From Candidatus Marinacidobacterales bacterium (lineage in GTDB: Bacteria > Acidobacteriota > Vicinamibacteria > Marinacidobacterales > SMYC01): a stretch of 64,000 bases of DNA. Positions 13,990 to 32,011 of this stretch are shown here, in pieces. The stretch spans positions 1,216,001 through 1,280,000 of the forward strand of contig OZ250169.1 of NCBI GenBank assembly GCA_965237955.1, written 5' to 3'. The stretch's first letter is position 1. Every line of letters begins with the position of its first letter. The translations under genes and the position numbers were made by a program. Below the pieces are notes generated by a model, which was not told where the DNA came from, searched no databases, and was given only the letters and a program-made list of their open reading frames with translations.

Positions 13990-14255
13990 AGTTGATGGCG
14001 GAAGCACCGCCATTTGACTCTTCGAGTCCATAGAGCGTAGCGATGTTCGGGTGGTTCAGCGAAGCCAGGACCTTTGCTTCTCGCTTGAATCGGGCTAGGC
14101 GTTCTTCGTTCTCAGCGAACTCCTCGGCCAAGACTTTGATCGCCACGTCCCGGCCGAGCTTGGAGTCCTTTGCCCTATAGACCTCTCCCATCCCGCCCTT
14201 ACCGATGGGCTCGAGGATCTCGTAGTGGGCGAGTTTGTGACCAGGTTAGAGTGAC
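13990..14255 (-). pseudogene. Ser/Thr protein kinase N-terminal remnant
   Basis: HYEILEPIGKGGMGEVYRAKDSKLGRDVAIKVL..LARFKREAKVLASLNHPNIATLYGLEE, then truncated; early in-frame stop. Confidence 0.85.
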
Positions 14256-14463
14256 ACGACGTCGACGATGTTACGATGATGGTCGCCGGTCGGCAACTCA
14301 TGAAACCGTCAAGAATCGTCCAAAGCTGCTCGTGAGCTTTTGCAGCCCCGGCAACCCGTGCCGCTGTATGTATTCTTCTTTTTTTCTCCACGTCGACTCC
14401 CGTTGCTTGAAGCTTCCCGGCTGTCTACAATCTCTAGAACTCTTTCGCCGGTCACTAGGGGAG

Positions 14464-15550
14464 TGCCTTGGTGCACAACTCGCGATCTCGGTCCACAATT
14501 GTCCTTTACTCACGGATTCGAGGTTCCCCATGAGCATTTTCAAACGCACTCAGCGGAAGTATGTGAAGAAGGCCTATCGCGTGAGGAATTGGCGTGAATA
14601 TGAGGCGGGTCTACGCAACCGTGGGAGCCTGACCGTCTGGATCTCGCTCACCGCCGGCAAGCTTGTGAACTGGGACGCGCCCCGGCCGAGGAGGAGGAAC
14701 CCGGGCCGTCAACGCAAGTACTCGAACCACGCCATCGAGACGGCTGTCACCCTGGGCATGGTGTTTCATCTGTCATCTAGGCAGAGCGAGGGATTGCTGC
14801 GGTCGTTGTTCGCTCTGATGAAGCTAGACAATGATGTGCCCGATCACACCACGATCTCGAGGCGCAAGGCGAAGCTGGGTAAGGTCCCCTTCTACCAAGA
14901 CAAGCAGAAGACGCCGTTGCACATCTTGATCGACAGCAGCGGTCTCGCTGTCCACGCCGGCCAGCTGCGCAGAGCACCAAAGAGCAGGGACTATCGCAAG
15001 CTCCATCTGTGTGTCGACGAGCAGACTGGCGAAGTCGTCGCCGGCGAGCTGACGAGCAAAAGAGCCCGCGATTCATCGCGGGTTGCATCGCTTGTCGGAC
15101 AGATCGACAGTCCCATCTCATCGGCCAGAGCTGACACCGCATACGACGCCGGCGGCGTCTATGAGGCAATCGAGAATCACAGCGCTCATTGCTCGCCGAG
15201 GGTGCTGATACCGCCGCGCAAGGGCGCCCAGCTCGCATCGGGGCCGGCGAGCAGCCGACAGCGCAATCGCAACATTGCAGCACAAGCTCGGCTCGGCAAA
15301 CGAAAGTGGCACACAGAATCGGGCTACAGCAAACGGAGCAAAGTCGAGACAACGTTCCATCGCTACAAGGCTATCGTGGGCTCAGCGATGCGAGCGAGAG
15401 GGTTGGCGGCACAGAGAGTCGAGGCAAGGATCGGGTGCAAGATTCTCAACACGATGACGGCGCTCGGGATGCCTGATAGCGAGATGATCGGATGATGGGA
15501 GTCGGGGCCAAGCGAGCTCTCGGCCTCTATCGGAGTTGTGCACCAAGGCA
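14464..15550 (+). mobile_element. IS5-family (IS903 group) insertion sequence
   Basis: Perfect 18-bp IR TGCCTTGGTGCACAACTC / GAGTTGTGCACCAAGGCA; no target duplication visible. Confidence 0.9.
14530..15495 (+). CDS. IS5/IS903-type DDE transposase
   Basis: YRVRNWREYEAGLRNRGSLTVW, VPDHTTISRR, IDSSG, YRKLHL, ADTAYD, SGYSKRSKVETTFHRYK. Confidence 0.93.
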   Translation: MSIFKRTQRKYVKKAYRVRNWREYEAGLRNRGSLTVWISLTAGKLVNWDAPRPRRRNPGRQRKYSNHAIETAVTLGMVFHLSSRQSEGLLRSLFALMKLDNDVPDHTTISRRKAKLGKVPFYQDKQKTPLHILIDSSGLAVHAGQLRRAPKSRDYRKLHLCVDEQTGEVVAGELTSKRARDSSRVASLVGQIDSPISSARADTAYDAGGVYEAIENHSAHCSPRVLIPPRKGAQLASGPASSRQRNRNIAAQARLGKRKWHTESGYSKRSKVETTFHRYKAIVGSAMRARGLAAQRVEARIGCKILNTMTALGMPDSEMIG

Positions 15551-16406: not shown

Positions 16407-17858
16407 CTACAAATAGGGCGTCAGCAACCGCGCCGCGCCGTCGCGGAGACGGAGCGGAAGGCTCCGGCTTTCGACTTCTTTCCTTTCCAAGCGGCGCGCT
16501 TGGCGGATGCGTTCCATGACGAGCTCTCTCATACGCTTCGCGAGCTCACGGTCGTAGCATTCGACGTTGAACTCGAAGTTGAGCCTGAGGCTTCTCGGAT
16601 CCCAGTTCGTCGAACCGAACAGTACCCAGTAGTCATCCACGACCATCAGCTTGCTGTGATCGAAAGGTGTTTCCGGAGCAAGCCAAACGCGGACGCCGTG
16701 TCCGAGCACTTGCGCGATCTGGCCCCACATGGCCCAGGTGACGAGGTTGAGGTTCCCCTTCTCGGGAATCACGACGTCGACGTCGAGGCCGCTCAACGCG
16801 GCCGTATTGAGGGCGTAGACGAGCGGTTGATCAGGAAGGAAGTAGGGCGTGATGATGCGGATCGACCGTTCCGCGCACGCGATCGCACCCATGAGGGTGA
16901 AGTTCAAGACGTCGAGGTCAGCGTCGGGGCCGTCGAGAATGCCACGAGCGATGGTGTTCCCGGCCGGCTCGAGATCCGGATTCCACTTCGCGCCATCGAG
17001 CGACTCGCCGGTGGTGAACTCCCAATCCTCGGCGAAGGCATCCCGGAGGTGCGCGACAACGGGACCCTCGACGCGGAAGTGGAGATCCATCCCCGGGTGT
17101 TTCGGTCCGTTCGAGAGAACGAAGTCTTGGCGAATGTTCATCCCTCCGGTGAAACCGATGCGTCCATCGACGACCATGACCTTCCGATGGTTGCGCAAGT
17201 TGAACGAGGGCACACGTGTCGAGAACGTCGGCAGGAACGTGGCGACGGGCACGTCGCTCCGCCGGAGAAGCCGCGAGATCGGAGGGCGCGAGTAGCGCGA
17301 GCCCACGTGGTCGATGAGAACCCGTACTTCGACGCCGCGCTCTTTCGCGGCCTTGAGCGCTTCGAGAAACAACTTTCCCGCGGAGTCGTGATCAAAGATG
17401 TAGGTGAGAAGGACGACGGACTTTTCGGCGTTCCCAATCGCCTCTAGCATCGCTGGATATGCTTCGTCCCCGTTGACGAGTGGCTCCACGCAGTTGCCCG
17501 CCAGAAGCGTCCGCGAGGTGACGTTCCCGATGAGATGGGCGAGCTCGACGGCTTCGTCGTCCGCGTCGAGCAAGCTCGCGATGTCACCCGGAATCAGGCT
17601 GTCGCCGGGCCAGCGATCCTCCCTCTCCTCTTCGGCCTCACGCCTGAGGGCGACGGCGCGACGCCGGATGCGGTTGATGCCGATGAAGTAATAGAGGACG
17701 GATCCGATGACCGGCGCCAGAAGGATGAGACCGACCCACGCGATCGCCGCGCGCACTTCGTTCTTGAACAAGAGCGCATGGACGACAGCGACGGTTGCCG
17801 CGACGACGACGAGTGCCGACCCGGCTAGCAACAAATGCGACGCAACCCATTCGATCAT
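16407..17858 (-). CDS. cls: Cardiolipin synthase (phospholipase D family)
   Basis: Two N-terminal TM helices; two HKD motifs (RNHRKVMVVD, HSKLMVVD); GSTNWDPRSLRLNFE. Confidence 0.93.
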   Translation of the reverse strand: MIEWVASHLLLAGSALVVVAATVAVVHALLFKNEVRAAIAWVGLILLAPVIGSVLYYFIGINRIRRRAVALRREAEEEREDRWPGDSLIPGDIASLLDADDEAVELAHLIGNVTSRTLLAGNCVEPLVNGDEAYPAMLEAIGNAEKSVVLLTYIFDHDSAGKLFLEALKAAKERGVEVRVLIDHVGSRYSRPPISRLLRRSDVPVATFLPTFSTRVPSFNLRNHRKVMVVDGRIGFTGGMNIRQDFVLSNGPKHPGMDLHFRVEGPVVAHLRDAFAEDWEFTTGESLDGAKWNPDLEPAGNTIARGILDGPDADLDVLNFTLMGAIACAERSIRIITPYFLPDQPLVYALNTAALSGLDVDVVIPEKGNLNLVTWAMWGQIAQVLGHGVRVWLAPETPFDHSKLMVVDDYWVLFGSTNWDPRSLRLNFEFNVECYDRELAKRMRELVMERIRQARRLERKEVESRSLPLRLRDGAARLLTPYL

Positions 17859-18096: not shown

Positions 18097-18915
18097 ATGA
18101 CGATAAAAACATTGCGGCATTGGATACGAAACTTGGCACCGTGGTGCTTGGCCCTCACGCTCGTCGGTTGCAGCGCGAGCCAGCAAACATCTGTGCCGAC
18201 GCCCCCAGAGCCCCCGACGTCGCCGTCGTCACCGACGGACACGGGGGAATTCGAAGCGACGCCTACCACGCCGTCCCCAGCAGAGGCGCCGTCCGCGGAA
18301 GCACCATCGCTTCCCGAGCCCGCCGGCGAATCAGGAGACGAGACCGACGCCGCAGGCGAAGAGGCCGAGGCCGGCGGTGAAGCGGAAGCTGAGGCCAGCG
18401 CAGAAGCATCTGCCGCGGACGCACCGGCCGGGGGTGCGGAAACTTCGGAAGAGCGACGGGCCGGGCTCGATGGCAAGCTCGATGAATCGCTTCGTGAGTT
18501 CGACGGTCTCATTCTCAAAGAACAAGAAATCCTCGATGAGCGCCGCGAAGAAACCGCTGCGAATGCAGGCGGTGGCGGTGGTCTCGCAAGTGCGGAAGGA
18601 AGCACCGGTGGCGGCGGCAGCACTGAAGACGCCGATGTCGATGTCGATGCCGCATCCCAGGAGCAACGGGGAGGCACGGGTGGATCGCCTGACGCTCCGC
18701 CCGAGGATTCCGCACCGGCCTCACCGGAAGCCACGATCGACGGTGACCCCACGGCAACAGACCTCAATGGTCGGGTTCCCGGGGATGTCGGCGACGGTCG
18801 CGATGACGACATCGTGGCTCGCCAGCTCCGCGAGGCGGCCATGCAGGAAAAGGATCCTGCGCTTCGCGAACGACTGTGGGACGAATACCGCACGTACAAG
18901 AGCGGCACTAAATAG
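18097..18915 (+). CDS. Acidic low-complexity lipoprotein with a helical C-terminal motif (operon gene 1)
   Basis: Lipobox LVGC; long P/E/A/G-rich linker; short helices LDGKLDESLREFDGLILKEQ and DDDIVARQLREAAMQEKDPALRERLWDEYRTYK. Confidence 0.8.
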   Translation: MTIKTLRHWIRNLAPWCLALTLVGCSASQQTSVPTPPEPPTSPSSPTDTGEFEATPTTPSPAEAPSAEAPSLPEPAGESGDETDAAGEEAEAGGEAEAEASAEASAADAPAGGAETSEERRAGLDGKLDESLREFDGLILKEQEILDERREETAANAGGGGGLASAEGSTGGGGSTEDADVDVDAASQEQRGGTGGSPDAPPEDSAPASPEATIDGDPTATDLNGRVPGDVGDGRDDDIVARQLREAAMQEKDPALRERLWDEYRTYKSGTK

Positions 18916-18931: not shown

Positions 18932-20161
18932 ATGACGGCAACGAGTTGGGCTCGAGTGGTGACGGCATCGATTCTCGTCCTCGGACTCATCGCGACCTCC
19001 GCGCTGGCCGAAGACAAACCCGTCGAGCTCGTGCAAGCTCAAACGGAAGTGCCGGAGGAATTGCTGCTCGACGTCGGTATCCAGCTCTTCGACCCCGGGC
19101 TTCCCGACGACGAGTACGAACGCTACCTGCTCGAAGAGAAGGGTGTCTTCGCCGACGTGCGCAAATCCGAAGCGCGCTATTTCCCGCTACGCCTCAAACA
19201 AGCTCTGGAGACTTCGGGGTTTTGGGGCGCGGTTCGCCTCGTGCCATACTCTCACGTCGTCGACGTTCGTATCGGCGGCTTGATCTGGAAGTCCAACGGC
19301 AAGAAGCTGGAAGTCTTCATCAAGGTCGTCGACGCGACCGGCAAAGAGTGGCTCGACAAAGGCTATAAGGCTGAGGCCAACCGGCTGGCCTATTTGGACA
19401 AAGAGACCGACCGCGAGCCGTTCCAAGATCTCTACAACGAGATAGCGAACGATCTTCTCAAGGTGAGCAGAAAACTCGACGAGGAGGTCGTCGTCGAGAT
19501 CCGACGCATTACCGAGCTTCGGTTCGCGGACTACCTGGCGCCGACCGCGTTCGCGGACTACCTTGAGGCCAAGAAAACCAAGTACAAAATTGAACGGTTG
19601 CCTCCGTACGAGGATCCGATGATGCTCCGGCTCGCCGAGATCCGCGAGCGCGACTTCATGTTCGTCGACACCCTCAACGAGTACTACGCGGACTTCGACG
19701 CACAAATGAAAGAGCCCTACGACGGCTGGCGCGAGTTCAGCTATGAGGAGCAGGTCGCTCTCGATGAGCTGAACAAGAAGAAAAAGATGGAGATGATCGC
19801 GGGCATCGCCGCCGTCGTTGGAGGCGTTGTCGCGACCACCAACGGCGGACGCTGGGGTCACGGCGGAGGCCAAGTGGCCATTCTTGGCGGGATGGCAGCC
19901 ATCCAGGACAGCCTCCAGAAGGCCCAGGAAGCCGAGATGCACCGCGAGGGGCTTCGAGAGCTCGCCGCGTCGTTCGATTCCGAGATCACCCCCATCCTCC
20001 TCGATGTCGAGGGGGAGGTGTTGCGCCTCACCGGTTCCGTGGATACACAGTACGCAACATGGCGCCAACTTCTTCGTCACATTTTTGCAGCCGAGACGGG
20101 ACTGCCCTTGGACCCCAACGCCGCGCCGATTCCGGCGACGGAGGGTGAGTCCAAAAACTGA
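18932..20161 (+). CDS. Secreted uncharacterised protein with glycine-zipper hairpin (operon gene 2)
   Basis: GGAGG RBS + ATG at 18932; signal peptide ending ALA; IAGIAAVVGGVVA..GGGQVAILGGMAAI segment between helical stretches. Confidence 0.8.
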   Translation: MTATSWARVVTASILVLGLIATSALAEDKPVELVQAQTEVPEELLLDVGIQLFDPGLPDDEYERYLLEEKGVFADVRKSEARYFPLRLKQALETSGFWGAVRLVPYSHVVDVRIGGLIWKSNGKKLEVFIKVVDATGKEWLDKGYKAEANRLAYLDKETDREPFQDLYNEIANDLLKVSRKLDEEVVVEIRRITELRFADYLAPTAFADYLEAKKTKYKIERLPPYEDPMMLRLAEIRERDFMFVDTLNEYYADFDAQMKEPYDGWREFSYEEQVALDELNKKKKMEMIAGIAAVVGGVVATTNGGRWGHGGGQVAILGGMAAIQDSLQKAQEAEMHREGLRELAASFDSEITPILLDVEGEVLRLTGSVDTQYATWRQLLRHIFAAETGLPLDPNAAPIPATEGESKN

Positions 20162-20180: not shown

Positions 20181-22514
20181 ATGACGGCTCTGGCTCCCGG
20201 TCAGATTCTCGGCGAACGCTTCGAACTCATCCGTCGACTCGGCGAAGGAGGGATGGGCGAAGTGTGGCTCGTGGAAGATTTGGAGCTCTCGGATCGTGTC
20301 GTCGCCAAGATGGTGCCGCAGGTTGCGACCGAGGACCATCTCACTCAGCTGCGACGTGAGTGCCGCCACGCGAGAAAACTCGTCCACTCCAATATCGTCC
20401 CCGTCTACGATTTCCATCGCGCTTCCGGCGTTAGCTTCATCACCATGGCCTACGTCGAAGGTTCCGACATCGGCTCGCTGCGCGGTCGCCCGATCGAAGA
20501 CGTTTTGCCACCGTTGATTGCGGTTGCTGGTGCGCTCGTTTATGCCCACGCACGAGGGATCGTCCACCGCGACCTCAAGGTTGCGAACGTGCTGATGGAC
20601 TACACCGGCGAGCCGCAATTGTTGGACTTCGGGATCTCGGGCCTCGTCGCGCAAGAAAGAAGCGTCGACGGCATCAATATTAAGGGCGGAGGCTCCGAAG
20701 GATCGGCGAGCCCGCAACAGCTCGCCGGGGCTTCACCATCGGTGAGAGACGACATCTACGCTTTCGGCGTGCTCGCCAGCGATCTCCTGAGCGGGCAAAA
20801 ACTCCCGATGAAGCTCGACGCGCTCCTTAATGCCGCAATGAATCGCGAGCCGCGACATCGGCCGCAGACCATGTCCGAAGTCAAGAGCGCGCTCGAGACG
20901 ACCCCGAGTGCACTCGACGCGCCAGCGGCGAAAGAAGTCAAGTTGGCACCGCCACCGCGTGTGAGCCGGGTCGATCCGATCGTGCCCGTCGAAGTAGGGG
21001 CTCGCGAAGCGCCGCCAGTCGATGATGTCCCCTCTGTTCGCTTGGAGCGCGACGTCTCTGGAGGCGGCGTCGGAAGCAAAACCTTTGCCGCGTTCGTCGT
21101 GCTGCTCGCGCTCGCCGCCGGTGTTTTCATCGTCCTACCTCGCTGGGTCCCTCGCTTGGTCGACGATTCGGCCTCGCCGGTTGCAGGTGGACAAAATGAA
21201 CGGGCTGAACAGGCTGAACAGGCGGTTGCACCGCCACCGGCGTTGGAGGAAACCGACGTCGACGACGAAATCAATCTCGAAAACCTCGCGCAAAAGATGA
21301 CCGCGGCGGAGAACGTTCGCGCGCGCGCGGTCGCGTTGCGCGAATCCCTAGATGCGCTAAACGCCGGTGTTTGGGGCGGCGATGCCTATCGAGATGCTCT
21401 AGAAGCTCTCACCCGCGGTGAGGAACAGATGGGACGCCGCGCATTCACGGAGGCCGGGGCCAGTTTTCAAGGAGCACTTTCCGAGCTCGAATCGGTTCGT
21501 GCCAGCTCGACCAGCATCGCCGCCGATGCCATCCGGCGCGGACGAGAGGCGCTCGCCGCGGGAAGCTCGACCGAAGCCGAGGACGCGTTTGCACTAGCCC
21601 TCCAGATCCAGCCCTCGAACCCGGGGGCGAAGCGGGGTCGCGCGCGCGCCAAGGTGCTCGACGAGGTAAGAAATCTCGTGGCACGCGGGGAAGAGCTCGA
21701 ACGTCGAGGCGAGCTCGAGGGCGCTGCCGATAGCTACCGCAAAGCGGTAGCGCTCGATGCGCTCGCTCGAGCCGCGCAGCAAGGTCTCGCTCGTATCGAC
21801 TCGAGAGCGTCGGAGGAGGCCTTCACCCGAGCCATGTCCGAGGCGGTCGCAGCGTTAAACCGGCGTGACTTCGAAGTGGCACGCGCCGGCTTCGAGCGAG
21901 CCCGCGCGATCAAGCCCGACGCACCCGGCGTCGCCGATGGGCTCGAGGCCGTCAAGGAAGGGGAGCGAATCCAAGCTATCGCCCTCCACCGTGAAAAAGC
22001 GATGGCCTTCGAAACGCGAGAAGCATGGCGCTCTGCAGAGCAGCAATATCAAGCCGTGCTCGACATGGACGACACCATCCGATTCGCGCAGGAGGGTAAA
22101 GCGCGGGCTCTCGTCCGAGCCGAGCTGTCAGAGAAGCTCGAGTTTCACATCGGCCGTCCGGAGCGGTTGGCCGAAGACAAAGTTCTCGAGGAGGCATCCA
22201 CGGTCCTGGAAAACGCCAGTGCCGTTTTGAACGCTGGTCCCAAGATTGAGGCGCAGATCGCCCGCCTGACGGATCTGGTCGCCGAGTTCTCGACACCGGT
22301 TCAAGTCCGTCTTCTCTCTGACGGAAAGACCGAAGTCGTCGTCTACAAGATCGGAACGCTCGGCAAGTTCGCTACCCACGCGCTCGTGCTCCGTCCGGGC
22401 ACGTACACGGTGGTGGGACGGCGCCAAGGCTTTCGTGATGTGCGATACCGGCTCGTCGTCCACGCCGACACGCCACCGGAGCCACTAGACGTCCGTTGCC
22501 AGGAGGAGATTTGA
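20181..22514 (+). CDS. Membrane Hanks-type Ser/Thr kinase with periplasmic TPR-like repeats and C-terminal PEGA-like domain (operon gene 3)
   Basis: GEGGMGEV, VAK, HRDLKVANVL, DFG; TM FAAFVVLLALAAGVFIVLP; TPR-like helices (AFALALQIQPSNPGAKRG); LRPGTYTVVGRRQGFRD. Confidence 0.9.
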   Translation: MTALAPGQILGERFELIRRLGEGGMGEVWLVEDLELSDRVVAKMVPQVATEDHLTQLRRECRHARKLVHSNIVPVYDFHRASGVSFITMAYVEGSDIGSLRGRPIEDVLPPLIAVAGALVYAHARGIVHRDLKVANVLMDYTGEPQLLDFGISGLVAQERSVDGINIKGGGSEGSASPQQLAGASPSVRDDIYAFGVLASDLLSGQKLPMKLDALLNAAMNREPRHRPQTMSEVKSALETTPSALDAPAAKEVKLAPPPRVSRVDPIVPVEVGAREAPPVDDVPSVRLERDVSGGGVGSKTFAAFVVLLALAAGVFIVLPRWVPRLVDDSASPVAGGQNERAEQAEQAVAPPPALEETDVDDEINLENLAQKMTAAENVRARAVALRESLDALNAGVWGGDAYRDALEALTRGEEQMGRRAFTEAGASFQGALSELESVRASSTSIAADAIRRGREALAAGSSTEAEDAFALALQIQPSNPGAKRGRARAKVLDEVRNLVARGEELERRGELEGAADSYRKAVALDALARAAQQGLARIDSRASEEAFTRAMSEAVAALNRRDFEVARAGFERARAIKPDAPGVADGLEAVKEGERIQAIALHREKAMAFETREAWRSAEQQYQAVLDMDDTIRFAQEGKARALVRAELSEKLEFHIGRPERLAEDKVLEEASTVLENASAVLNAGPKIEAQIARLTDLVAEFSTPVQVRLLSDGKTEVVVYKIGTLGKFATHALVLRPGTYTVVGRRQGFRDVRYRLVVHADTPPEPLDVRCQEEI

Positions 22515-24955
22515 CCTCTCCGAAGGGACGTTTCTACATTCGTGAAGCCGATGGCACCCGTCGTCGCGTAGAGACGAGCGCGTTCCCGCTCGCCGTCGGT
22601 GGCACGAATGCTGATATTGCCATCGCCGTTTCCGGTCCGAACGTGGAGCCCCTCGCCCACCTCGCTCTCTCGGACGGCGAAGTATTCCTGCAACCCAACA
22701 TGTCCAACAGGGGGCGCGTTCTTTGTAACGGCGAGCCCGTGGCATCGTCGCAGTGGCTCCGCCACGGCGACGTTTTGTCGATCGGAGGGACCCGCATCGA
22801 AATCGAAGCGCGCGACGGCGGCTTTCGCTTTTGTATCGCGACAGCGGCGGAGAAAACGACCGACCCACCGATTTTGGAGGTCGCGTCAAAAACGCCCCCG
22901 GAACCGCCGAAGGGGGAAACCGTGGAGCCAATCGCGTTCACGCCGAGCTCGCTCGACGACGCGAGACGTCCACGGCGACGGTTGAAAGTTGGGGCGCTGA
23001 TGTTCTGGGGGGCGCTTGTCTTCCTGGGCGCTCTTGCATGGGCTCTATTCAACGCGCGTGGGGTGATGATCGAGATCGATCCGATGCCGGAGAGTGTCGT
23101 CGTAGACGGAAATGCGCTCGTCGTTGAGCTCGGCGGGCGTTTTTGGATGCACCCCGGCGCGTTCACCGTCGTCGCGGAAAAAGAAGGCTACCGGCGGCTC
23201 GAAGCACCCATCGAGGTCGGTGAGCCACGTAGCCAAACGTATGAGTTCTCGATGCAACGGCTTCCGGGGCGGCTCGCCATCACCACCATCCCGAACGAAG
23301 GAGCCGTGATCACGATCGACGGCGCCGAGCTCGGCACTTCCCCACTGCAGCCGGTGCAGCTCGAGCCCGGCGAGCATCAGGTGCTCGTCCGTGCATCCGG
23401 CTATCGCGACTTCCAGACCGAAGTCATGATCGAGGGCGAGGGCACCATCGTGAACCTCGAAGCGTCGCTCGAGCCACGATGGGCGCCGATCACGTTTCAA
23501 TCGAATCCGCCGGGTGCCATGATCCGGGTCGCGGGCAAGCCCCACGGTCCGACGCCGGTCACCGCAAACGTCATCGAAGGCACTCACGACTACGTCGTCG
23601 TTTTGGATGGGTACAAGCCCTACCGCGGCAGCGTGCACGTCGCCGCCGGCCAACCGCAAACGCTGAGCCCGGTGGCGTTGTCGCTCGTCGAAGGCACCAT
23701 CGCCCTTCTCAGTGTTCCCGCGACGGCGAACGTGACCCTCGATGGCGACTATCTTGGGCAGACACCCCTCGATGTCCATCTGACCCCGGGCGAAACGTAT
23801 CAGCTCGAGTTGTCGCGCGCCGGCTATGATCCCGTCACCCAAGAGATTTCGGTGGCGTCCTCGGCGAAGAAGACGATGACGGTTCGCCTCGAGCCTAGAC
23901 TCGGAGAGGTCGCACTCGTCGTCGATCCACCCGATGCCGAGCTCTACATCGACGGCGAGCACCGCGGCGCGGCCAAGCAAGTGTTGAACCTTCCAGCCAC
24001 CTCCCACCGCATCGAGATCAAGAAAGACAAGTACGAGAGCTTCGCCACCGATATCACCCCTCGACCCGGTTTTCCGCAAACGCTCGAAGTCAATCTCAAG
24101 ACCACCGCCGAGATCAAAGCCGCATCGATTCTCCCCGTGATCCAGACGTCCAAAGGACACGAGCTCAGACTCATAACCCCCAAACGCTTCGAGATGGGTG
24201 CATCGCGACGAGAGCCGGGAAGACGGGCGAACGAGTCGCTTCGCACCGTCGAGCTCACGCGCTCGTTCTACCTAGCGACCCGGGAAATCACCAACCGGCA
24301 GTTTCGCGAGTTCAGAAGCGGCCACCGCTCCGGCGCCGTCTCCGGGCACAACCTCGAAGTCGACCATCACCCGGTGGTACGTATCACCTGGCAGGACGCG
24401 GCCGCCTATTGCAATTGGTTGAGCCAACAAGAGTCGCTCCCACCCGCTTACGTCAACGCCGGCGGGAAGCTAATAGGCGCGAATCCGCCGAGAACCGGCT
24501 ATCGGCTTCCCACCGAAGCAGAATGGGCGCAGGCCGCGAGGTATGCTGGGGACACGAAGCTCAAATACCCTTGGGGGAGTGCGCTTCCGGTGGCGCCGGG
24601 CTCCGGCAACTACGCCGATGAGTCCGCGAAAGGTCTGGTGACGGCGACGGTGCCGAATTACAACGACAAGTTCCCGGTCACCGCTCCCGTGGACAGCTTC
24701 TCCGCCAACGAGCTCGGCATGTTCAACCTCGGCGGCAACGTCGCCGAGTGGGTGCACGACCTCTACACGATTTATCCGTCGGGCGCGCGTAAAGTGATGC
24801 AGGATCCCATGGGTCCAACCGAAGGAGAGTTTCATACCATTCGGGGTGCGAGCTGGATGCACGGAAGCGTGACCCAGCTCAGGCTCAGCTTCCGTGACTA
24901 CGGGAACAAACCGCGACCCGACGTCGGATTCAGGATCGCGAGATATTTGGAGTAA
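22511..24955 (+). CDS. FHA-like + TM + multiple PEGA + FGE/SUMF1-fold protein (operon gene 4)
   Basis: GAGGAG RBS, TTG overlapping the kinase stop; CNGEPV..LRHGDVLSIGG; PEGA repeats (SNPPGA.I...G.TP); GYRLPTEAEW, GGNVAEW, RGASW, GFR. Confidence 0.9.
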   Translation: MTSPKGRFYIREADGTRRRVETSAFPLAVGGTNADIAIAVSGPNVEPLAHLALSDGEVFLQPNMSNRGRVLCNGEPVASSQWLRHGDVLSIGGTRIEIEARDGGFRFCIATAAEKTTDPPILEVASKTPPEPPKGETVEPIAFTPSSLDDARRPRRRLKVGALMFWGALVFLGALAWALFNARGVMIEIDPMPESVVVDGNALVVELGGRFWMHPGAFTVVAEKEGYRRLEAPIEVGEPRSQTYEFSMQRLPGRLAITTIPNEGAVITIDGAELGTSPLQPVQLEPGEHQVLVRASGYRDFQTEVMIEGEGTIVNLEASLEPRWAPITFQSNPPGAMIRVAGKPHGPTPVTANVIEGTHDYVVVLDGYKPYRGSVHVAAGQPQTLSPVALSLVEGTIALLSVPATANVTLDGDYLGQTPLDVHLTPGETYQLELSRAGYDPVTQEISVASSAKKTMTVRLEPRLGEVALVVDPPDAELYIDGEHRGAAKQVLNLPATSHRIEIKKDKYESFATDITPRPGFPQTLEVNLKTTAEIKAASILPVIQTSKGHELRLITPKRFEMGASRREPGRRANESLRTVELTRSFYLATREITNRQFREFRSGHRSGAVSGHNLEVDHHPVVRITWQDAAAYCNWLSQQESLPPAYVNAGGKLIGANPPRTGYRLPTEAEWAQAARYAGDTKLKYPWGSALPVAPGSGNYADESAKGLVTATVPNYNDKFPVTAPVDSFSANELGMFNLGGNVAEWVHDLYTIYPSGARKVMQDPMGPTEGEFHTIRGASWMHGSVTQLRLSFRDYGNKPRPDVGFRIARYLE

Positions 24956-24958
24956 ACG

Positions 24959-25147
24959 ATGAAATGGATGATTTATTCACTCGCTGTGACACTTCTCGCT
25001 AGTGGCTCCCTGGTGGCGAGCTCGACCGCACCAAAAACCTACGAGAGCTCACAAACAGAACCCGAGCCAGATCCCGAGGAAGACGACTTCCTCCCCACTG
25101 AGAAAGTCCCAGCCGATAGCGCCATCTCGTTTCCAGTGGATATTTGA
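24959..25147 (+). CDS. Small secreted acidic protein (operon gene 5)
   Basis: GGAG RBS; signal peptide; fills the gap exactly between genes 4 and 6; ends DFLPTEKVPADSAISFPVDI. Confidence 0.75.
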   Translation: MKWMIYSLAVTLLASGSLVASSTAPKTYESSQTEPEPDPEEDDFLPTEKVPADSAISFPVDI

Positions 25148-25945
25148 ATGAAGAAATCGTACCCGGTCGAGTTCGTTTATCAAGCGCTATCTCTCATCGT
25201 CGCGATTATCGTCGTCCACGCCATCTACGTGCTCGTGGTGCGTCCGAAGGCCGACGTCGTTTTCGGCGAGCAGCAAGCGATGATGGAGATCGACCCGAAC
25301 TACGTTCAAGAGCGTTCGGTGTGGGTCATCATCCGTGATTTCGAACAAGAGACGTGCATCGTGCTCATGCTCTGGGCCATGGCGATCATGGTCTACAAAG
25401 GTGTGCTCGTGGCGCGTGAGCATCGCCTCCTCGAGATGGATCTCGTACCGGTGGACGAGGGAACGAAAATTCTCCCGGAGGACGCGCGCGAGTACGCGCG
25501 CCAGATGCAATCCCTGCCGGACTACGAGCAGCGGCTTTTGTTGCCGCGTTCGCTTCTCTCGGCGCTTCACCGCTTCCGCGCGACGCGCAACATTCAAGAC
25601 GTGTCGAACACCGCACACGGCGTGTGTGAAGCCGAATCCGAGCGACTCGAATCAGAGCTTTCGATGGTGCGCTACATCGCATGGGCGATCCCATCGATCG
25701 GGTTCATCGGCACCGTGCGCGGCATCGGTGAAGCGCTCGGCCAGGCGCACAGGGCCGTCGAGGGCGACATCGCCGGCGTGACCCAAAGCTTGGGGGTCGC
25801 GTTCAACTCGACGTTCATCGCGCTCTTGATCAGCATCGTGCTCATGTTCCTGCTCCATCAGCTCCAGTTGCAGCAAGAGCGGTTGGTCCTCGATACCGAA
25901 ACCTACCTCGACCATCATTTGATCCAACACCTCCAGGTTCCCTAG
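25148..25945 (+). CDS. MotA/TolQ/ExbB proton channel family protein (operon gene 6)
   Basis: IAWAIPSIGFIGTVRGIG..LGVAFNSTFIALLISI signature; 4 hydrophobic helices. Confidence 0.92.
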   Translation: MKKSYPVEFVYQALSLIVAIIVVHAIYVLVVRPKADVVFGEQQAMMEIDPNYVQERSVWVIIRDFEQETCIVLMLWAMAIMVYKGVLVAREHRLLEMDLVPVDEGTKILPEDAREYARQMQSLPDYEQRLLLPRSLLSALHRFRATRNIQDVSNTAHGVCEAESERLESELSMVRYIAWAIPSIGFIGTVRGIGEALGQAHRAVEGDIAGVTQSLGVAFNSTFIALLISIVLMFLLHQLQLQQERLVLDTETYLDHHLIQHLQVP

Positions 25946-25955
25946 GCGCCTCGAG

Positions 25956-27365
25956 ATGACCGTAGTCGCATTGGAGCTCAACGACGCGGGCATCTCTGCC
26001 GTCTCGGATGGAGCTCCCGATAGTCTCGCCATTCCCGAGAGCCCGGGATACGCGCTCGTTGAAGACGGGAGTGTCGTCACCGGAGTCGATGCCCGTGCTC
26101 GAGCACGGCTCAAGCCACGATTCACCCACACGCGATTCTGGGATGCTCTCGACACGACGCCCTTGTCGCGACCGTTTCCGAACAAGCTGAGTCGAGCCGA
26201 CCTCGCGCACGCCCATCTGAAGCACGTTTGGAAGAGTCTTCAGGATGACGGTGGGGTGGACGAAGCCGTGCTCGCCGTCCCCGGCTGGTACGGATTGGAG
26301 CAGCTGGGCCTCATCCTCGGCATGGCGCGGGCGTGCGACATCTCCGTCAACGGCATGATCGACTCGGCGCTGGCGGCCGCGGCCGGAGTGTCGGGACCGA
26401 GCGCAGCGTCCCCCGTGCACGCCGTCCATCTCGATCTCCATCTCCACCGGTGCTCCGCCGCGAGGATCGTGAGAGAAGATCGCCTCGTTCGCGAAAACAC
26501 CGTCGTCGACGACGACGTTGGTCTGATCCCGCTCTACGATGCTTGGGCCACGCTAGTGGCACAGTCTTTCGTTCGCCAGACGCGCTACGACCCGCTGCAC
26601 TCGGCCGAGAGCGAACAGAAGCTCTACGATCTGCTCCCGGGCTGGCTCGAGACACTGATCGACGACGACGAGGCAACGCTCTCGCTGACGCCAGCCGGAA
26701 AAGAGCTCGCGATCGAGCTCGACCGACGCCAGCTCGTTCACAGCGCAGGCTCGTATTACGAGTCGATCGCGGCGCTCGCAACCTCGGTGATGCCTGCCGA
26801 TGAGCCGGTGATGCTCCTCGTTTCCCATCGTCTCGGCCGACTCCCGGGTCTCGTCGAGAAGCTCTCCCGCGACGTTTCCGACAACCTCGTCCTCCTGCCG
26901 CCCGAAGCGGCAGCCGCGGGCGCGCTCGCCTACGACAGCCACGTCCCGAGCGCTCCGGAGAACGAGGGTTCTCTGACGTTTCTCACCAGCCTCCATCTCG
27001 GCGAAGGCGGCAAACCGCTCGCCGCCGATCCAAGCTTTCACGCAACCAGCGATGATGTGCGCTCGCCCACCCACCTGCTCCACGACGCTTCCGCGTACCC
27101 GCTCGATCCTGAGCCGTTCCTCCTCGGAGTATCCATCCCGGAAGGCAAACGCGGATTGAATCTCGCGGGTGACACCGCCGGGATTTCGCGCTATCACTGC
27201 AGCATCTACCGCATGAACGGACGCATCGTCGTCGAGGATCACAGCAAGTTCGGCTCGTTCGTGAACGGGACACGCGTTCACGAGCGTGCCGCGCTCGCAA
27301 TAGGCGACCGACTACGACTCGGCACGCCCGGTGTCGAAGTGCAGCTCATCGAGGTAGCGGACTGA
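25956..27365 (+). CDS. Degenerate Hsp70/actin-like fold protein with C-terminal FHA domain (operon gene 7)
   Basis: EAVLAVPGWY..MIDSALAAA and PPEAAAAGALAY resemble the Hsp70 nucleotide-binding domain; FHA ISRYHC..EDHSKFGSFVNG..GDRLRLG. Confidence 0.75.
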   Translation: MTVVALELNDAGISAVSDGAPDSLAIPESPGYALVEDGSVVTGVDARARARLKPRFTHTRFWDALDTTPLSRPFPNKLSRADLAHAHLKHVWKSLQDDGGVDEAVLAVPGWYGLEQLGLILGMARACDISVNGMIDSALAAAAGVSGPSAASPVHAVHLDLHLHRCSAARIVREDRLVRENTVVDDDVGLIPLYDAWATLVAQSFVRQTRYDPLHSAESEQKLYDLLPGWLETLIDDDEATLSLTPAGKELAIELDRRQLVHSAGSYYESIAALATSVMPADEPVMLLVSHRLGRLPGLVEKLSRDVSDNLVLLPPEAAAAGALAYDSHVPSAPENEGSLTFLTSLHLGEGGKPLAADPSFHATSDDVRSPTHLLHDASAYPLDPEPFLLGVSIPEGKRGLNLAGDTAGISRYHCSIYRMNGRIVVEDHSKFGSFVNGTRVHERAALAIGDRLRLGTPGVEVQLIEVAD

Positions 27366-28456
27366 TGGCGCGGCGACGCATCAACATATTCACGCTCTCT
27401 TTTCTGGACGCGATGATGTGCGGCTTCGGCGCGGTCGTGTTGTTCTTCATGATCATCAACGCGAGCTTCGGAAAAGTGTCGCGCGGGATGACCGGGAAAC
27501 TGCAGGGTGAGGTCACCCGGCTGGAGCAAGAAGTCCTCGAAGGCTACGTCCAGCTCGTCGAGCTCCGGAACTCCTTCGAGGAGATCGACCAGGAAAACGT
27601 CATTGCCGCAGGGTTATCGAGGCGGCTCATCGAGACTCTCACCGTAGTCCAGGAAGAGCTCGCAACCTACGAGAATTCGACGCTCGCAACGCGCGAGCAC
27701 ATTAACAAGCTCAAGACCGATCTGAAGACGCTTGAAGACGGGGTGAAACGGCTGTCGGCTGCGGGCCCGAGTGAGGAGACGCCTGGTGACCGTATCCGCA
27801 CGTTCGTTGGAGACGGCGATCGACAATACCTCACGGGGTTGAAGGTCGGAGGCCGCCGCATCCTCATTCTCGTCGACGTGTCCGCGAGCATGCTCGACGA
27901 GACCATCGTCAACGTCGTGCGCCGCCGCAACCAGTCGGTTGCGATCAAGAGGCGGTCCGAAAAATGGCAGCAGGCGGTCTCCACCGTGGATTGGATCACG
28001 ACCCAGATTCCGACTGACAGTCGGTTTCAAATCTACACGTTCAATACGAGCTCGGCGTCGGTCGTGCCCGGAAAGAACCACGAGTGGCTCGACGCAGGCG
28101 ATCGCGAAGTCCTCGACGAGGCCGTCCAACGCCTCCGCGGCGTCATCCCTAGTGACGGCACCAACCTTTACCGGGCGTTCACGTCGTTCCGCTCGTTGCG
28201 CCCGGCTCCCGACAATATCTACTTGCTCGTCGACGGTCTCCCCACACAAGGCCAACGACCACCGAGACGCGCCACGATCTCCGGAAAAGACCGCGCCAAG
28301 CTATTCAACGACGCCGTCAAAGAGCTACGGGACAACATTTCCATCAACGTGATCTTGTTCCCCATGGAAGGCGACCCCATGGCCGCAAGCGCTTTCTGGA
28401 AGTTGGCCCTGTTCTCGGGTGGCGCCTACATAAGCCCATCGGAGGACTGGCCTTGA
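27365..28456 (+). CDS. TM-anchored coiled-coil + vWA protein with ExbD/TolR-like N-terminus (operon gene 8)
   Basis: RRR..FTLSFLDAMMCGFGAVVLFFMII; MIDAS DVSAS, GTN, VDGLP. Confidence 0.88.
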   Translation: MARRRINIFTLSFLDAMMCGFGAVVLFFMIINASFGKVSRGMTGKLQGEVTRLEQEVLEGYVQLVELRNSFEEIDQENVIAAGLSRRLIETLTVVQEELATYENSTLATREHINKLKTDLKTLEDGVKRLSAAGPSEETPGDRIRTFVGDGDRQYLTGLKVGGRRILILVDVSASMLDETIVNVVRRRNQSVAIKRRSEKWQQAVSTVDWITTQIPTDSRFQIYTFNTSSASVVPGKNHEWLDAGDREVLDEAVQRLRGVIPSDGTNLYRAFTSFRSLRPAPDNIYLLVDGLPTQGQRPPRRATISGKDRAKLFNDAVKELRDNISINVILFPMEGDPMAASAFWKLALFSGGAYISPSEDWP

Positions 28457-29469
28457 GAAAGAGAAGAAGAAGACGCCGCGATTTCGATGCGTTCAACCTG
28501 TCGTTTCTCGACGTAGTCTGCTGCGGCTTCGGCGCGATCATTCTGCTCCTCGTTCTCACCAAGATCGGTGAGCCCCGCGCTCTCGAGAACATCAAGAGCG
28601 AGCTCGAAGGGCTCGTCGACAAGTTACAAGAAGAGCTCTTCGAGATCCGAGGCGAGACCAACGTTTTCGAGCGGGACCTGAAAACGAGAGTCGAGCAGCT
28701 ATCGACCGAGCGCGACGCCATAGCGCGCCTCCGCGGGGATCTCTCCAAGATTCAGGGCGTATTCGCCGCGACCCAACAACTCTCCGAAGTCAACGACATC
28801 GTCGAAGGACGGCTTCTCGCCGCCCAGCAGGACCTGACCGAGGAGATGAAGAGGTTGCTCGGCCGAAGCTACCGCCGACGTGAGAGCGACTCCACCGTCG
28901 GCGGCATCCCCGTCGACAGCGAGTACATCATCTTCATCATCGATACGTCCGGCAGCATGCGCAACTACGCGTGGCACCTGGTCGTCAAGAAAATGCAAGA
29001 GGTCCTCAACATCTACCCCAAAGTCAAAGGCATCCAGGTCATGAACGACATGGGGCAATACATGTTCGGGAACTATTCGGGGCGGTGGATCCCGGATACC
29101 CCGGGCCGGCGGAAGGTCATCCTCAATCGGCTGCGGAGCTGGGCGCCGTTCAGCAACTCGAGCCCGGTGGAAGGTATCATCCGGGCGATCCGAAGCTTCG
29201 CAGCTCCGGACAAGAAAATTAGCCTCTACGTCTTCGGCGACGATTTCAACGGCGATTCCATCGATCGAGTCGTGGAAACGGTGGATCGCATCAACAAGAG
29301 AGACAAGGACGGCAACCGCCTGGTCCGCATTCACGGCATCGGTTTTCCGGTGTTGTTCTCTCGGATCGGGTTTCAAGAGAACGGGGGTGTACGGTTTGCA
29401 ACGCTGATGCGTTTACTGTGTCGTGAGAACGGTGGCGCTTTTGTGGGATTGGGATCGTTGCGGCGGTGA
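28453..29469 (+). CDS. Second TM-anchored coiled-coil + vWA protein (operon gene 9)
   Basis: RRRR..FNLSFLDVVCCGFGAIILLLVL; MIDAS DTSGS, FGDD; TTGA overlap with gene 8. Confidence 0.88.
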   Translation: MRKRRRRRRDFDAFNLSFLDVVCCGFGAIILLLVLTKIGEPRALENIKSELEGLVDKLQEELFEIRGETNVFERDLKTRVEQLSTERDAIARLRGDLSKIQGVFAATQQLSEVNDIVEGRLLAAQQDLTEEMKRLLGRSYRRRESDSTVGGIPVDSEYIIFIIDTSGSMRNYAWHLVVKKMQEVLNIYPKVKGIQVMNDMGQYMFGNYSGRWIPDTPGRRKVILNRLRSWAPFSNSSPVEGIIRAIRSFAAPDKKISLYVFGDDFNGDSIDRVVETVDRINKRDKDGNRLVRIHGIGFPVLFSRIGFQENGGVRFATLMRLLCRENGGAFVGLGSLRR

Positions 29470-29470
29470 G

Positions 29471-29679
29471 CAGCATTCAGCATTCAGCATCCAGCATTCA
29501 GTACAGCTCGCGAACTTTGCCTTCGGACACTTTGCCCCAAACGCGGAGGAGCATCGCCTTCGGGCAGCGTTCGCTCTGGTTACCTGCGGCACGGTGCTGA
29601 TGGGTACGACGTCATTTACCGGCACGATGCTGGTCTGAACCGGACGCTGGATGCTGAATGCTGGATGCTGAGTGCTGAT
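29471..29679. repeat. Heptamer (CAGCAT[T/C]) tandem arrays in inverted orientation
   Basis: CAGCATTCAGCATTCAGCATCCAGCATTCAG at about 29471-29501 and CTGGATGCTGAATGCTGGATGCTGAGTGCTG at about 29647-29677. Confidence 0.8.
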
Positions 29680-32011
29680 CCTCAGTCGGATGAACATGCA
29701 GGTCTCGTTGCGGGAATGGGATACTTATTCCCGCGTCTTTGAGCTCGTCGTTGATGGTGACGTGCAGGTCGCTCGAGACTTGTAAGAAGTCGTCGATCCG
29801 GGTCCATACCAGCAGCCGGAAGTCGAGGGCGCTTTCCCCGAAGCCGACCATCAGCGCCGAAGGCGCGGGACTCTCGAGTGTTTTCGGATGCGCGCTCGCG
29901 GTGTCGCGGAGTATTTCCAATACTTTCTTCGGGTCGGTGCCGAGGGCGACGTGAACGAGAACTTCGACCCGGCGCGTCATGTCCGTGCGCGTCCAGTTGA
30001 CGAACTCTTTGGACACGAGGTCGCTGTTCGGTACGACGACCTCGGCGCCATCGAACGTCCGGATGGTGCTAGCGCGGATACCGATGCCGGTCACGATTCC
30101 GAAATGATCTTTCGTTTCGACGCGATCGCCGACTTTGATCGGTCTTTCGAAGATCAGAATCAGTCCAGAGACGAAGTTGCTGACGATGTTCTGGAGGCCG
30201 AAGCCAATGCCGACCCCCAACGCGCCAAAAACAACGGTTAGTTGCGTCGCGCTGAGCCCACCGGCGGCAGCCGCCAGTAACAGTCCCGAGCCCCAGATCA
30301 CGTAGTTGATGACGGAGACCACAGAGTGGTCCGCTACAGCGGGCAGACGAAGGCGGGGCAACATTTCCTCGCGCAGGACGAAGCGCACCATCCGCGCCGT
30401 GAACCATGTCGCCACCAGGATGACCATCGCCGCAACGACGCGACCTACCGACACGTCGAGCCCCCCCACGGTCGCAGACGCGGATAGCGCTGCCGCTGCT
30501 TTCTCGGTCAAAGGTTCGAGAAGCTGGAAATTTCTGAGCGAAGCTCGACTCCACCAAATGAACGCGACGGTCGCGGCGACGAGGAATACCCCGCGCGCGA
30601 ACATGTCGCCGTGCCGGCGAACGCTCGGGAAGATGGCGCCGAGCGGGCTCCGGACGGCGACGGGAACGAGAGCCGTCAACGCGAGGACGACAGTTGCCCA
30701 TGCGATGGCGCCAAAGGCGGCCGTCGTCGTCGCATCGGTCAAAGTCTCCGACAGATTTTCCCAACCTAGGATGTTCGCGATCAAGGAAACGGTCAGGAGC
30801 ACGGCCGCCATGGCGAGCAAGAACCAAGCGAAGCGCCACCAAACGCCCACCTTGGTCTTCTCATCCGGCCGCCACCGCGAGATCAGAGCCGCCACCGCTC
30901 CGAGCGCCAACGCGGTCACCAAAACCAGGAGAATCCTGCGAAGAAACGAACCGTCCGGGGCCAGCGCCCACAGACGATTGAGGACGAGCAGCACCATGGC
31001 ACCATAGAGCGCGGATCGCGCCGGTACCGGCAGGAGCCCTCGTCCGAGTCGCACGATGGGCACGATGGCAAGAACCAACACCATGTCCTCGACCGGACCA
31101 ACGGTGTTATCGAGCAGGAACACCATCGCGACGACGGTGAAGGCGACCGCCGTCGACAACGGCCGGGAGACAACGAACCGGGCACTATCCAAACGGTGGT
31201 CGTCGGGGGGCCATGAACGGCTAACGTATCGCGCGAGGAGAGCCGCGAACAAGAACGCGACGAAAGATGTCAAGAGAAACGTGAACCTCCCCGGGCGGGA
31301 CAGGATGAAGGCGACGAGAGTGTCGAGCCAATACTTCTGAGCCTCGACGGCGGAGGCGCGGATCGTGCTGCCTTCCGAAGACTCGCCCAATCGCCACAGG
31401 GGTGGCGTGTTCCGAGTCCAGACACGTGCTCGAACTTTGGCGGCGATGGCCGAGAGTCGATCGATCGCTTCCGCGGAAATCTCTCTGCCTTGTGACACCC
31501 GGGCGAGCACGGAACCGATGGCCTCACCACGTTCGGTGAGACGTCTGTCGACGCCATCCAATCGCTCCAACAGCCGGTCGATCTGCTCGACAATCTCGGT
31601 AGGGGCGTTCTCCTCGGTTGCGTTCTCGCGAGTGATTTCCCACTCGTCGCGAGCCGCCGAAAGCTCTTCGCCTTCCTGAGCGAGCGTCTGCCAACGCTCC
31701 TGAAGCTCGACCATCCACTGGGCCAGCTTTTCGTCGAACTCGCCCCAACCCAGGCGATGATCCGCGAGCATCCGCATCGAGATCTCGTCGCCCTTCACGG
31801 CGTCGAGGTTCCGACGAAGCTCCACGAGAACATCACCGGCATCGCCGACGGCAGCCTCGATTGCTTGTATCTCGTAGCTCGGCTCGAGCAAGGCTTCGAC
31901 CCGACGCAAATTCGCGCCGAGCTCGTCGGAGCGGACCGCCACATCCGCCAGCGGGATCGCAACCGGCACTTCGGCCGTTACCGCCGGCACCGACGCCTCG
32001 TCCTGTGCCAT
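29612..32011 (-). CDS. Large MscS-family (MscK-like) mechanosensitive channel
   Basis: Periplasmic coiled coil, many TMs, GALGVGIGFGLQNIVSNFVSGLILIFERPIKVGD, VVPNS, IPFPQRDLH; signal peptide appears out of frame. Confidence 0.9.
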   Translation of the reverse strand: MAQDEASVPAVTAEVPVAIPLADVAVRSDELGANLRRVEALLEPSYEIQAIEAAVGDAGDVLVELRRNLDAVKGDEISMRMLADHRLGWGEFDEKLAQWMVELQERWQTLAQEGEELSAARDEWEITRENATEENAPTEIVEQIDRLLERLDGVDRRLTERGEAIGSVLARVSQGREISAEAIDRLSAIAAKVRARVWTRNTPPLWRLGESSEGSTIRASAVEAQKYWLDTLVAFILSRPGRFTFLLTSFVAFLFAALLARYVSRSWPPDDHRLDSARFVVSRPLSTAVAFTVVAMVFLLDNTVGPVEDMVLVLAIVPIVRLGRGLLPVPARSALYGAMVLLVLNRLWALAPDGSFLRRILLVLVTALALGAVAALISRWRPDEKTKVGVWWRFAWFLLAMAAVLLTVSLIANILGWENLSETLTDATTTAAFGAIAWATVVLALTALVPVAVRSPLGAIFPSVRRHGDMFARGVFLVAATVAFIWWSRASLRNFQLLEPLTEKAAAALSASATVGGLDVSVGRVVAAMVILVATWFTARMVRFVLREEMLPRLRLPAVADHSVVSVINYVIWGSGLLLAAAAGGLSATQLTVVFGALGVGIGFGLQNIVSNFVSGLILIFERPIKVGDRVETKDHFGIVTGIGIRASTIRTFDGAEVVVPNSDLVSKEFVNWTRTDMTRRVEVLVHVALGTDPKKVLEILRDTASAHPKTLESPAPSALMVGFGESALDFRLLVWTRIDDFLQVSSDLHVTINDELKDAGISIPFPQRDLHVHPTEDQHSASSIQHPASGSDQHRAGK

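Follow-up and report, generated by a model that had tools for sequence, protein, structure and literature searches.

The seventh gene of a nine-gene operon in the window, by which we mean the whole 64,000-nucleotide stretch analysed, encodes a 469-residue protein in which a nucleotide-binding domain (NBD) of predicted Hsp70 fold is joined to an FHA domain. The ATP motifs of this pseudo-NBD are replaced, and the phospho-binding loops of the FHA domain are retained wherever the Ser/Thr kinase of the same operon is present and are usually decayed where that kinase is missing. On balance we favour the reading that the protein acts as a kinase-switched cytoplasmic adaptor, which would sit on the tail of the neighbouring PEGA-FGE protein and tune a TolQ-like/paired-vWA proton motor. 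The nine genes are co-directional, and the pseudo-Hsp70-FHA gene, which has one copy in the source genome, stands between the MotA/ExbB gene and two vWA genes. The features of the operon are as follows.

18097..18915, +, gene 1: lipoprotein with lipobox LVGC, acidic/disordered with a conserved C-terminus
18932..20161, +, gene 2: exported protein, N-terminal FlgT/TolB-N/CsgG/PelC-like fold and a long Gly-rich helical hairpin
20181..22514, +, gene 3: Hanks Ser/Thr kinase, TM, TPR and beta tail; kinase domain absent in many relatives
22511..24955, +, gene 4: degenerate FHA-like domain, cytoplasmic linker, TM, PEGA repeats and FGE-sulfatase-like domain; likely start TTG at 22511 after AGGAGG
22859..22870, +, T-D-P-P (TxPP) in the gene 4 cytoplasmic linker: candidate phosphothreonine, follows the kinase
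22922..22945, +, VEPIAFTP juxtamembrane motif of gene 4 ([ILVF]xxxx[FY]x[PR]): candidate kinase-independent ligand of the pseudo-NBD
24959..25147, +, gene 5: 62-residue exported peptide ending FPxDI, easily overlooked by annotation; found in 164 of 169 FGE-MotA intervals
25148..25945, +, gene 6: MotA/TolQ/ExbB channel; both lumen threonines conserved (104/105 each)
25956..27365, +, gene 7: pseudo-Hsp70-FHA gene, ATG start, predicted cytoplasmic
25956..26945, +, residues 1-330 of gene 7: Hsp70 NBD-like domain (AF2 model, structure searches, alignment)
26973..26993, +, LTFLTSL hydrophobic stretch of gene 7 (family LPFVTRL): conserved, just past the NBD
27066..27356, +, residues 371-467 of gene 7: FHA domain in place of the Hsp70 substrate-binding domain (Pfam and PDB FHA matches)
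27186..27254, +, S411-R-x-H414 and D428-x-S430-x-x-G433 of gene 7: phospho-binding loops (motif conservation against kinase)
27365..28456, +, gene 8: transpore helix, coiled coil and vWA domain with DxSxS; conserved Asp in 105/106
28453..29469, +, gene 9: second transpore-helix vWA protein; Asp in 97/101

An Hsp70-type domain with a replaced nucleotide site, joined to an FHA domain

By sequence, the Hsp70 signal is weak. A profile search against PDB reached Sse1 and Ssz1 at E values of 0.015-0.06, a single-sequence PDB search with the protein gave no Hsp70 match at all, and Pfam assigned it an FHA domain alone (residues 407-456, PF00498, E 5.5e-12) with no match to HSP70. Searching with the 469-residue protein gave 527 matches among 7995 scored candidates, and FHA-type labels were the only Pfam labels on 118 of the best 120; at E<=1e-30 the family counted 1243 representatives. 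In comparison, the AF2 model (mean pLDDT 91.4) contains an actin-like NBD with Hsp70-type subdomains, followed by the FHA domain, with the Hsp70 C-terminal substrate-binding domain absent. The top Foldseek matches of the model were all Hsp70s (best E 5e-20, Ssz1), and an Atlas search returned unnamed clusters first and then Hsp70 clusters at 0.89-0.90. VIA-align superposed the model on Ssz1 (Z 32.0, rmsd 3.8, 343 aligned), Ssb1 (Z 30.6, rmsd 3.3, 328 aligned), Sse1 (Z 29.8, rmsd 3.9, 341 aligned), MreB (Z 25.3, rmsd 4.3, 292 aligned), FtsA (Z 19.1, rmsd 3.3, 255 aligned) and PilM (Z 17.0, rmsd 3.6, 242 aligned), while GspL was not among the best 50 matches listed. The Hsp70 fold of the NBD is, on the predicted model, near certain.

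An earlier note on this DNA had proposed an Hsp70/actin fold from the order of its motifs, naming a predicted structure without that fold as the refutation; the model and both structure searches confirm the fold, and every motif it quoted is found in the reading frame. Its further description of a scaffold like PilM, GspL or FtsA holds for the actin fold and fails for descent from the PilM/FtsA branch (Z 17-19 against 30-32). The closest fold is that of Hsp70 rather than PilM or FtsA (Z 32.0 against 17.0 and 19.1), and judged from the model the domain is a descendant of Hsp70, with PilM a functional analogy only. Ssz1 and Hsp110/Sse1 share its four-subdomain fold (Z 30-32, rmsd 3.3-3.9 over 326-343 residues) and its motif order, while the pseudo-NBD is about 55 residues shorter than the DnaK NBD. 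The protein lies outside the Hsp70 chaperones, outside PilM/FtsA and, by motif, outside the canonical FHA. The hydrophobic stretch just past the NBD is also kept, in LPFVTRL-type form, where the FHA domain is missing, and by its position may be the counterpart of the Hsp70 interdomain linker.

The ATP motifs of Hsp70 are phosphate-1 DxGTT, the catalytic Lys70 and Glu171, phosphate-2 DxGGGT and adenosine GGxxR. We compared the nucleotide site with the source genome's own DnaK and in a HMMER register to Sse1, assuming the functional roles that we assign to the compared positions; percentages are over the 115 sequences of alignment A1, which holds the window protein and 114 of its best 120 matches (four near-duplicates and two partial matches were left out). 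None of the motifs is found intact in the pseudo-NBD, and the two leading acids alone remain, which stand at the Mg site (E7 in 90%, D160 in 99%). Phosphate-1, D8-L-G-T-T-N in DnaK, reads E7-L-N-D-A-G (E 90%, D10 98%, G12 98%), and N168-E169 has become D136-S/A/Q, with IDS in the window protein. Phosphate-2, D191-F-G-G-G-T in DnaK, reads D160-L-H-L-H-R (L 95%, H 96%, R 95%), G221-G222 has become G189-L (VGL for LGG in the window protein), and the adenosine G334-G335 has become S-x-R (SHR for GGS/T in the window protein), with the E/K/S adenine-ribose contacts gone as well. The earlier report of altered phosphate loops (ELND, DLHLH) is thus correct, and the bulky substitutes are conserved through the 115 sequences. 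An invariant Trp62 appears to occupy the position of Lys70. Profile-profile alignment (hhalign) against the genome's three DnaK domains gave a probability of 6.5%, which is uninformative given a DnaK alignment of just three rows, and the register placing W62 at Lys70 is therefore a presumed one, counted by hand.

Since the ATP motifs are replaced, hydrolysis becomes very unlikely: the pseudo-NBD very probably does not hydrolyse ATP. Its binding of nucleotide is doubtful, but it may still bind Mg or nucleotide, since the two leading acids survive. The pocket substitutes are conserved alike in kinase-bearing and kinase-less groups, and the domain therefore seems to be under selection for another job.

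The C-terminal domain of the AF2 model is all-beta and has the FHA fold. The earlier note had stated that this domain retains S-x-x-H and NG. The former was right, S411 and H414 each being present in 99% of the 115 sequences, whereas the binding NG is absent: F432 stands at the canonical Asn in a HMMER alignment to the Rv0020c FHA (Y/H/F in the family), and the NG at N437 is a later, structural one. The GR dipeptide is also missing, with V, L, I or T in place of Arg after G391 in the 115 sequences. According to the available part of PMC3162421, three motifs are crucial for FHA domains, and two of them are incomplete here, with neither the Arg of GR nor the Asn of NG. The missing Arg may be compensated for by R399 and R412, both of which track the kinase.

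The FHA loops and the operon kinase

Of 197 loci in which the FHA loops were scored against the kinase, 79 were dropped because their contig stopped too early to show whether the kinase is there, and two because of an unreadable FHA. Among the rest, the motif SxxH...DxSxxG was intact in all 68 loci with a kinase domain and in 3 of 38 kinase-less loci, the others having an eroded (28) or deleted (7) FHA. Ten further kinase-less loci had no pseudo-Hsp70-FHA gene, and the kinase was absent from all 10 gene-less loci that could be scored. In phylogenetically independent pairs taken from a FastTree tree of FGE+MotA+vWA1+vWA2, 8 of 9 agreed with the link and none opposed it (8:0:1, p=0.008), and with IQ-TREE on 47 thinned rows the outcome was 7:0:1 (p=0.016). 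The first 80 loci, which had been chosen partly by their FHA pattern, yield three independent pairs by themselves (2:0:1); later sets were assembled without such a choice. Erosion hits the loops, with S411 and S430 each kept in 5 of 35 sequences, as against 29 for H373, 25 for N437 and 26 for D451. Two kinase-less genomes in which the FHA is eroded have 25 and 16 Hanks kinases elsewhere, which points to the cognate operon kinase.

One clade (L007, L052 and L168) keeps the FHA motif without the kinase and without TxPP. It is sister to locus L010, in which the kinase match covers residues 1-161 only and TxPP is likewise absent; the clade looks like a case of lagging decay. All 69 kinases have the catalytic Asp and 67 have the DFG Asp, while 13 carry Arg or some other residue instead of the beta-3 Lys. 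The kinase domain of the window (20181-20930) has a short activation segment, with GGS...SPQQ replacing the usual T-P-x-Y...APE. In one gammaproteobacterial clade the kinase shows Arg in place of the beta-3 Lys and HGD in place of HRD, yet both the FHA motif and TxPP are kept.

The loss of FHA loops along with the kinase in 8 of 9 pairs gives comparative support to phosphothreonine-dependent recruitment, as the earlier note had supposed in making phosphothreonine the means by which the protein reaches the motor. What changes is the docking site, for which a Thr of the PEGA-FGE protein is now the best candidate, rather than the motor or the kinase domain. From these sequence comparisons, we consider it likely that the FHA domain reads a mark placed by the cognate operon kinase.

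Candidate ligands and rival readings

TxPP, often preceded by N-x, was found by a post hoc column scan of seven operon proteins, and is the clearest kinase-tracking Ser/Thr site in them outside the FHA domain. It occurs in 65 of 68 kinase-bearing loci and 5 of 48 kinase-less ones; in a larger set the counts are 65/69 and 9/60, with 5% expected from shuffles. Independent pairs give it borderline support (about 5.5:0:3.5; p has a median of 0.03 and a range of 0.03-0.125), and the matches in kinase-less loci sit, by eye, in proline-rich stretches. Other candidates were discarded. S79 of the NBD and T10 and S85 of vWA1 gave weak or discordant independent pairs, the kinase's own linker holds no comparably conserved Thr (best 18/55), and in gene 4 the FHA-like domain at the N-terminus, considered as a phospho-reader, has G-G for G-R and no SxxH. 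The TxPP Thr is thus a probable site of reading by the FHA domain, on the strength of its co-occurrence with the kinase. The juxtamembrane motif of the same tail accompanies the pseudo-Hsp70-FHA gene in 116 of 123 loci and occurs in 2 of 21 without it, with two independent pairs only (p 1); an initial pattern, PxxF/Y, had failed to match 39 of 124 loci and was broadened post hoc. A contact between the pseudo-NBD and this juxtamembrane tail can be put forward only tentatively.

The mechanism that we propose begins with an Hsp70 NBD fold whose ATP motifs have been replaced and whose substrate-binding domain has given way to an FHA domain, as modelling and conservation show, and with phospho-loops that, by comparative evidence, are kept with the operon kinase and usually decay after its loss. 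The kinase would then phosphorylate the TxPP Thr (22859-22861), to which the FHA domain would bind. Less firmly, the pseudo-NBD might grip VEPIAFTP in the same tail independently of phosphorylation, much as PilM does with the N-terminus of PilN, and such a grip would explain why the NBD outlives both the kinase and the FHA domain. Speculatively, the resulting two-point grip could couple or uncouple the PEGA-FGE arm and the motor. The full version of this scheme, which combines a nucleotide-free Hsp70 clamp, a non-canonical FHA reading phosphothreonine without the GR Arg and the NG Asn, a two-point grip on a constitutive motif and pThr-x-P-P, and a phosphorylation-operated clutch on an undescribed proton-driven two-membrane machine, is rather unlikely to be right in every part.

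Three rival readings share some of this evidence. The adaptor could be just as dependent on the kinase and read a phosphothreonine elsewhere, in the kinase, in the motor or in its own linker, with TxPP serving, for example, as a kinase docking site. Co-loss of the loops with the kinase names no ligand, and the clade keeping the FHA motif without TxPP fits this account; however, the prominence of TxPP in the column scan and the lack of a conserved Thr in the kinase linker count against it, and we think it unlikely. A low probability also goes to an NBD that binds ATP/ADP or Mg without hydrolysis, in the manner of Ssz1, PilM and FtsA, as a nucleotide-loaded scaffold or the motor's energy sensor. 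Such an NBD would suit the strong conservation of E7, D10, D136 and D160, the identity of the nearest structures (Ssz1, Ssb1 and Sse1) and the precedent of Ssz1, which is described in PMC7083937 as binding ATP without hydrolysing it. The pocket itself argues otherwise, since L-H-R (95-96% conserved) has taken the place of the Gly-rich phosphate-2 loop, G-L that of the G-G before helix IIB and S-x-R that of the adenosine GG, and the adenine-ribose contacts are gone. Nucleotide loading would be compatible with a role as phospho-reader.

The remaining rival takes the FHA domain as a phosphate-independent structural module, as in MxiG or the myxobacterial GltG, with its erosion reflecting relaxed selection in streamlined operons. 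The want of the GR Arg and NG Asn agrees with this, as do the T3SS protein MxiG as a precedent (in the available part of PMC3162421) and the persistence of eroded FHA folds in 28 kinase-less loci. We hold it to be improbable, because all 68 kinase-bearing loci have S411, H414, D428, S430 and G433 unchanged, those loop residues are lost selectively while the FHA core is kept, and 8 of 9 independent pairs agree with a link to the kinase.

If the reading of a kinase-switched adaptor is true, an Hsp70 fold has been reused as a non-enzymatic signalling adaptor, and a variant of the FHA domain reads phosphate without two textbook residues. The reading names a triple of kinase, site and reader that is testable with a soluble domain and a synthetic peptide.

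Motor core, related systems and distribution

The neighbourhood was examined in 81 loci, namely the window's own and the best 80 of 394 GTDB relatives, mostly from Acidobacteriota and Gammaproteobacteria. MotA was found in 78 of them, each vWA gene in 78, PEGA-FGE in 76 and kinase/TPR in 72. The operon combines a TolQ-like gene with two TM-vWA genes carrying a transpore Asp, and no ExbD/TolR was seen in it; it belongs by these features to the class of TolQ-like motors with a heterologous pair of TPH-vWA proteins that PMC12204202 (2025) predicted. Genes 6, 8 and 9 match that class as described there (TolQ-like, no ExbD/TolR, paired vWA transpore Asp, Thr ring). The motor core had thus already been predicted, while Hsp70, kinase and PEGA have 0 mentions in the main text of PMC12204202, the part available, where the regulatory layer and the pseudo-Hsp70-FHA protein are absent. 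Our literature search, which reached few subscription papers, found no paper describing the protein or the operon, and no literature account of the pseudo-Hsp70-FHA protein. The Hsp70-associated conflict systems of PMC7159879 were considered and set aside: in the available part of that paper MotA/ExbB has 0 mentions, and its Hsp70s go with GTPases, GrpE and DnaJ. The fold match of gene 2 is modest (best Foldseek E 3.9e-5, TM 0.23); from its modelled fold it is a candidate outer-membrane ring, and a stand-alone paralog lies elsewhere in the source genome (G000:C1:3948387-3949607).

Several known systems share parts of the arrangement. Like PilM and FtsA, the protein has an actin fold, is cytoplasmic and is encoded with an envelope machine, and judging from the titles of PDB entries 2ych and 5eou, PilM holds a bitopic partner by its N-terminal peptide, which is the binding mode proposed here. 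In contrast, PilM and FtsA bind ATP (titles of PDB 5eou, 7q6d and 3wqt) and are not known to carry an FHA domain, and the pseudo-Hsp70-FHA protein is dispensable in many lineages. Ssz1 is non-hydrolysing yet ATP-binding in the account of PMC7083937, whereas here the phosphate and adenosine loops are replaced. A parallel to the proposed signalling is the Agrobacterium T6SS set of PpkA, TssL and Fha, in which, in the portion of PMC3953482 available, an operon kinase phosphorylates a cytoplasmic Thr of a bitopic inner-membrane protein that is then bound by a soluble FHA protein. Fha there binds pThr14 of TssL, and its single change R30A merely reduced function; unlike the protein described here, it retains the canonical Arg and lacks an Hsp70 domain. 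In the operon of the window, neither T6SS genes nor a PP2C phosphatase were seen. In layout, the Myxococcus Agl-Glt machine, as presented in the parts of PMC3169522 and PMC11761067 at hand, is also alike, with one TolQ-like channel shared by two unlike partners, GltG as an FHA-TM-periplasmic arm, TPR proteins, and MreB as a cytoplasmic partner of actin fold. It differs in that the partners here end in vWA rather than ExbD, the arm is PEGA-FGE rather than TonB-C, and the actin-fold protein is a dedicated Hsp70 derivative.

The pseudo-Hsp70-FHA gene is an accessory part of a widespread operon. Within the window's phylum, 5 of 301 genomes were found to have it. The vWA2 gene, and with it the 5:2-type motor class, turned up in 35 of 400 genomes sampled from the class to which a Steroidobacter genome belongs (Gammaproteobacteria; one genome is unpublished). 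Among 32 gammaproteobacterial regions chosen via vWA2, 18 had the gene and 14 did not, and it was found in none of 20 further regions from two orders, two of which were too short to judge. A whole-genome search of 33 such genomes, incomplete and mostly kin, detected both positive controls and the gene in one genome, on another contig. This copy (G709:C150:1348-2178), off the contig of a gene-less operon, points to a second operon or bin contamination. A role as an essential scaffold was ruled out, because whole clades keep the operon without the gene.

Natural forms without the FHA domain end at about 345 residues. In three small-genome gammaproteobacteria (L134, L135 and L136) the operon is shrunken, with fewer PEGA repeats, TPR nearly gone and a barely recognisable NBD of 310 residues without FHA. 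motA is absent from the fetched region in L129 and L137 and lies behind the vWA genes in L133, while L121 has the motor trio without the upstream genes, and L067 has NBD-vWA-vWA without them and with an eroded FHA. Around the operon of the window, a cardiolipin-synthase-like PLD gene (16407-17858) is shared upstream by 9 of 81 loci and an MscS-family channel (29612-32011) downstream by 2 of 81, all of them close relatives, and two DDE transposase genes of IS elements are found at 14170-15495 and 41968-43080.
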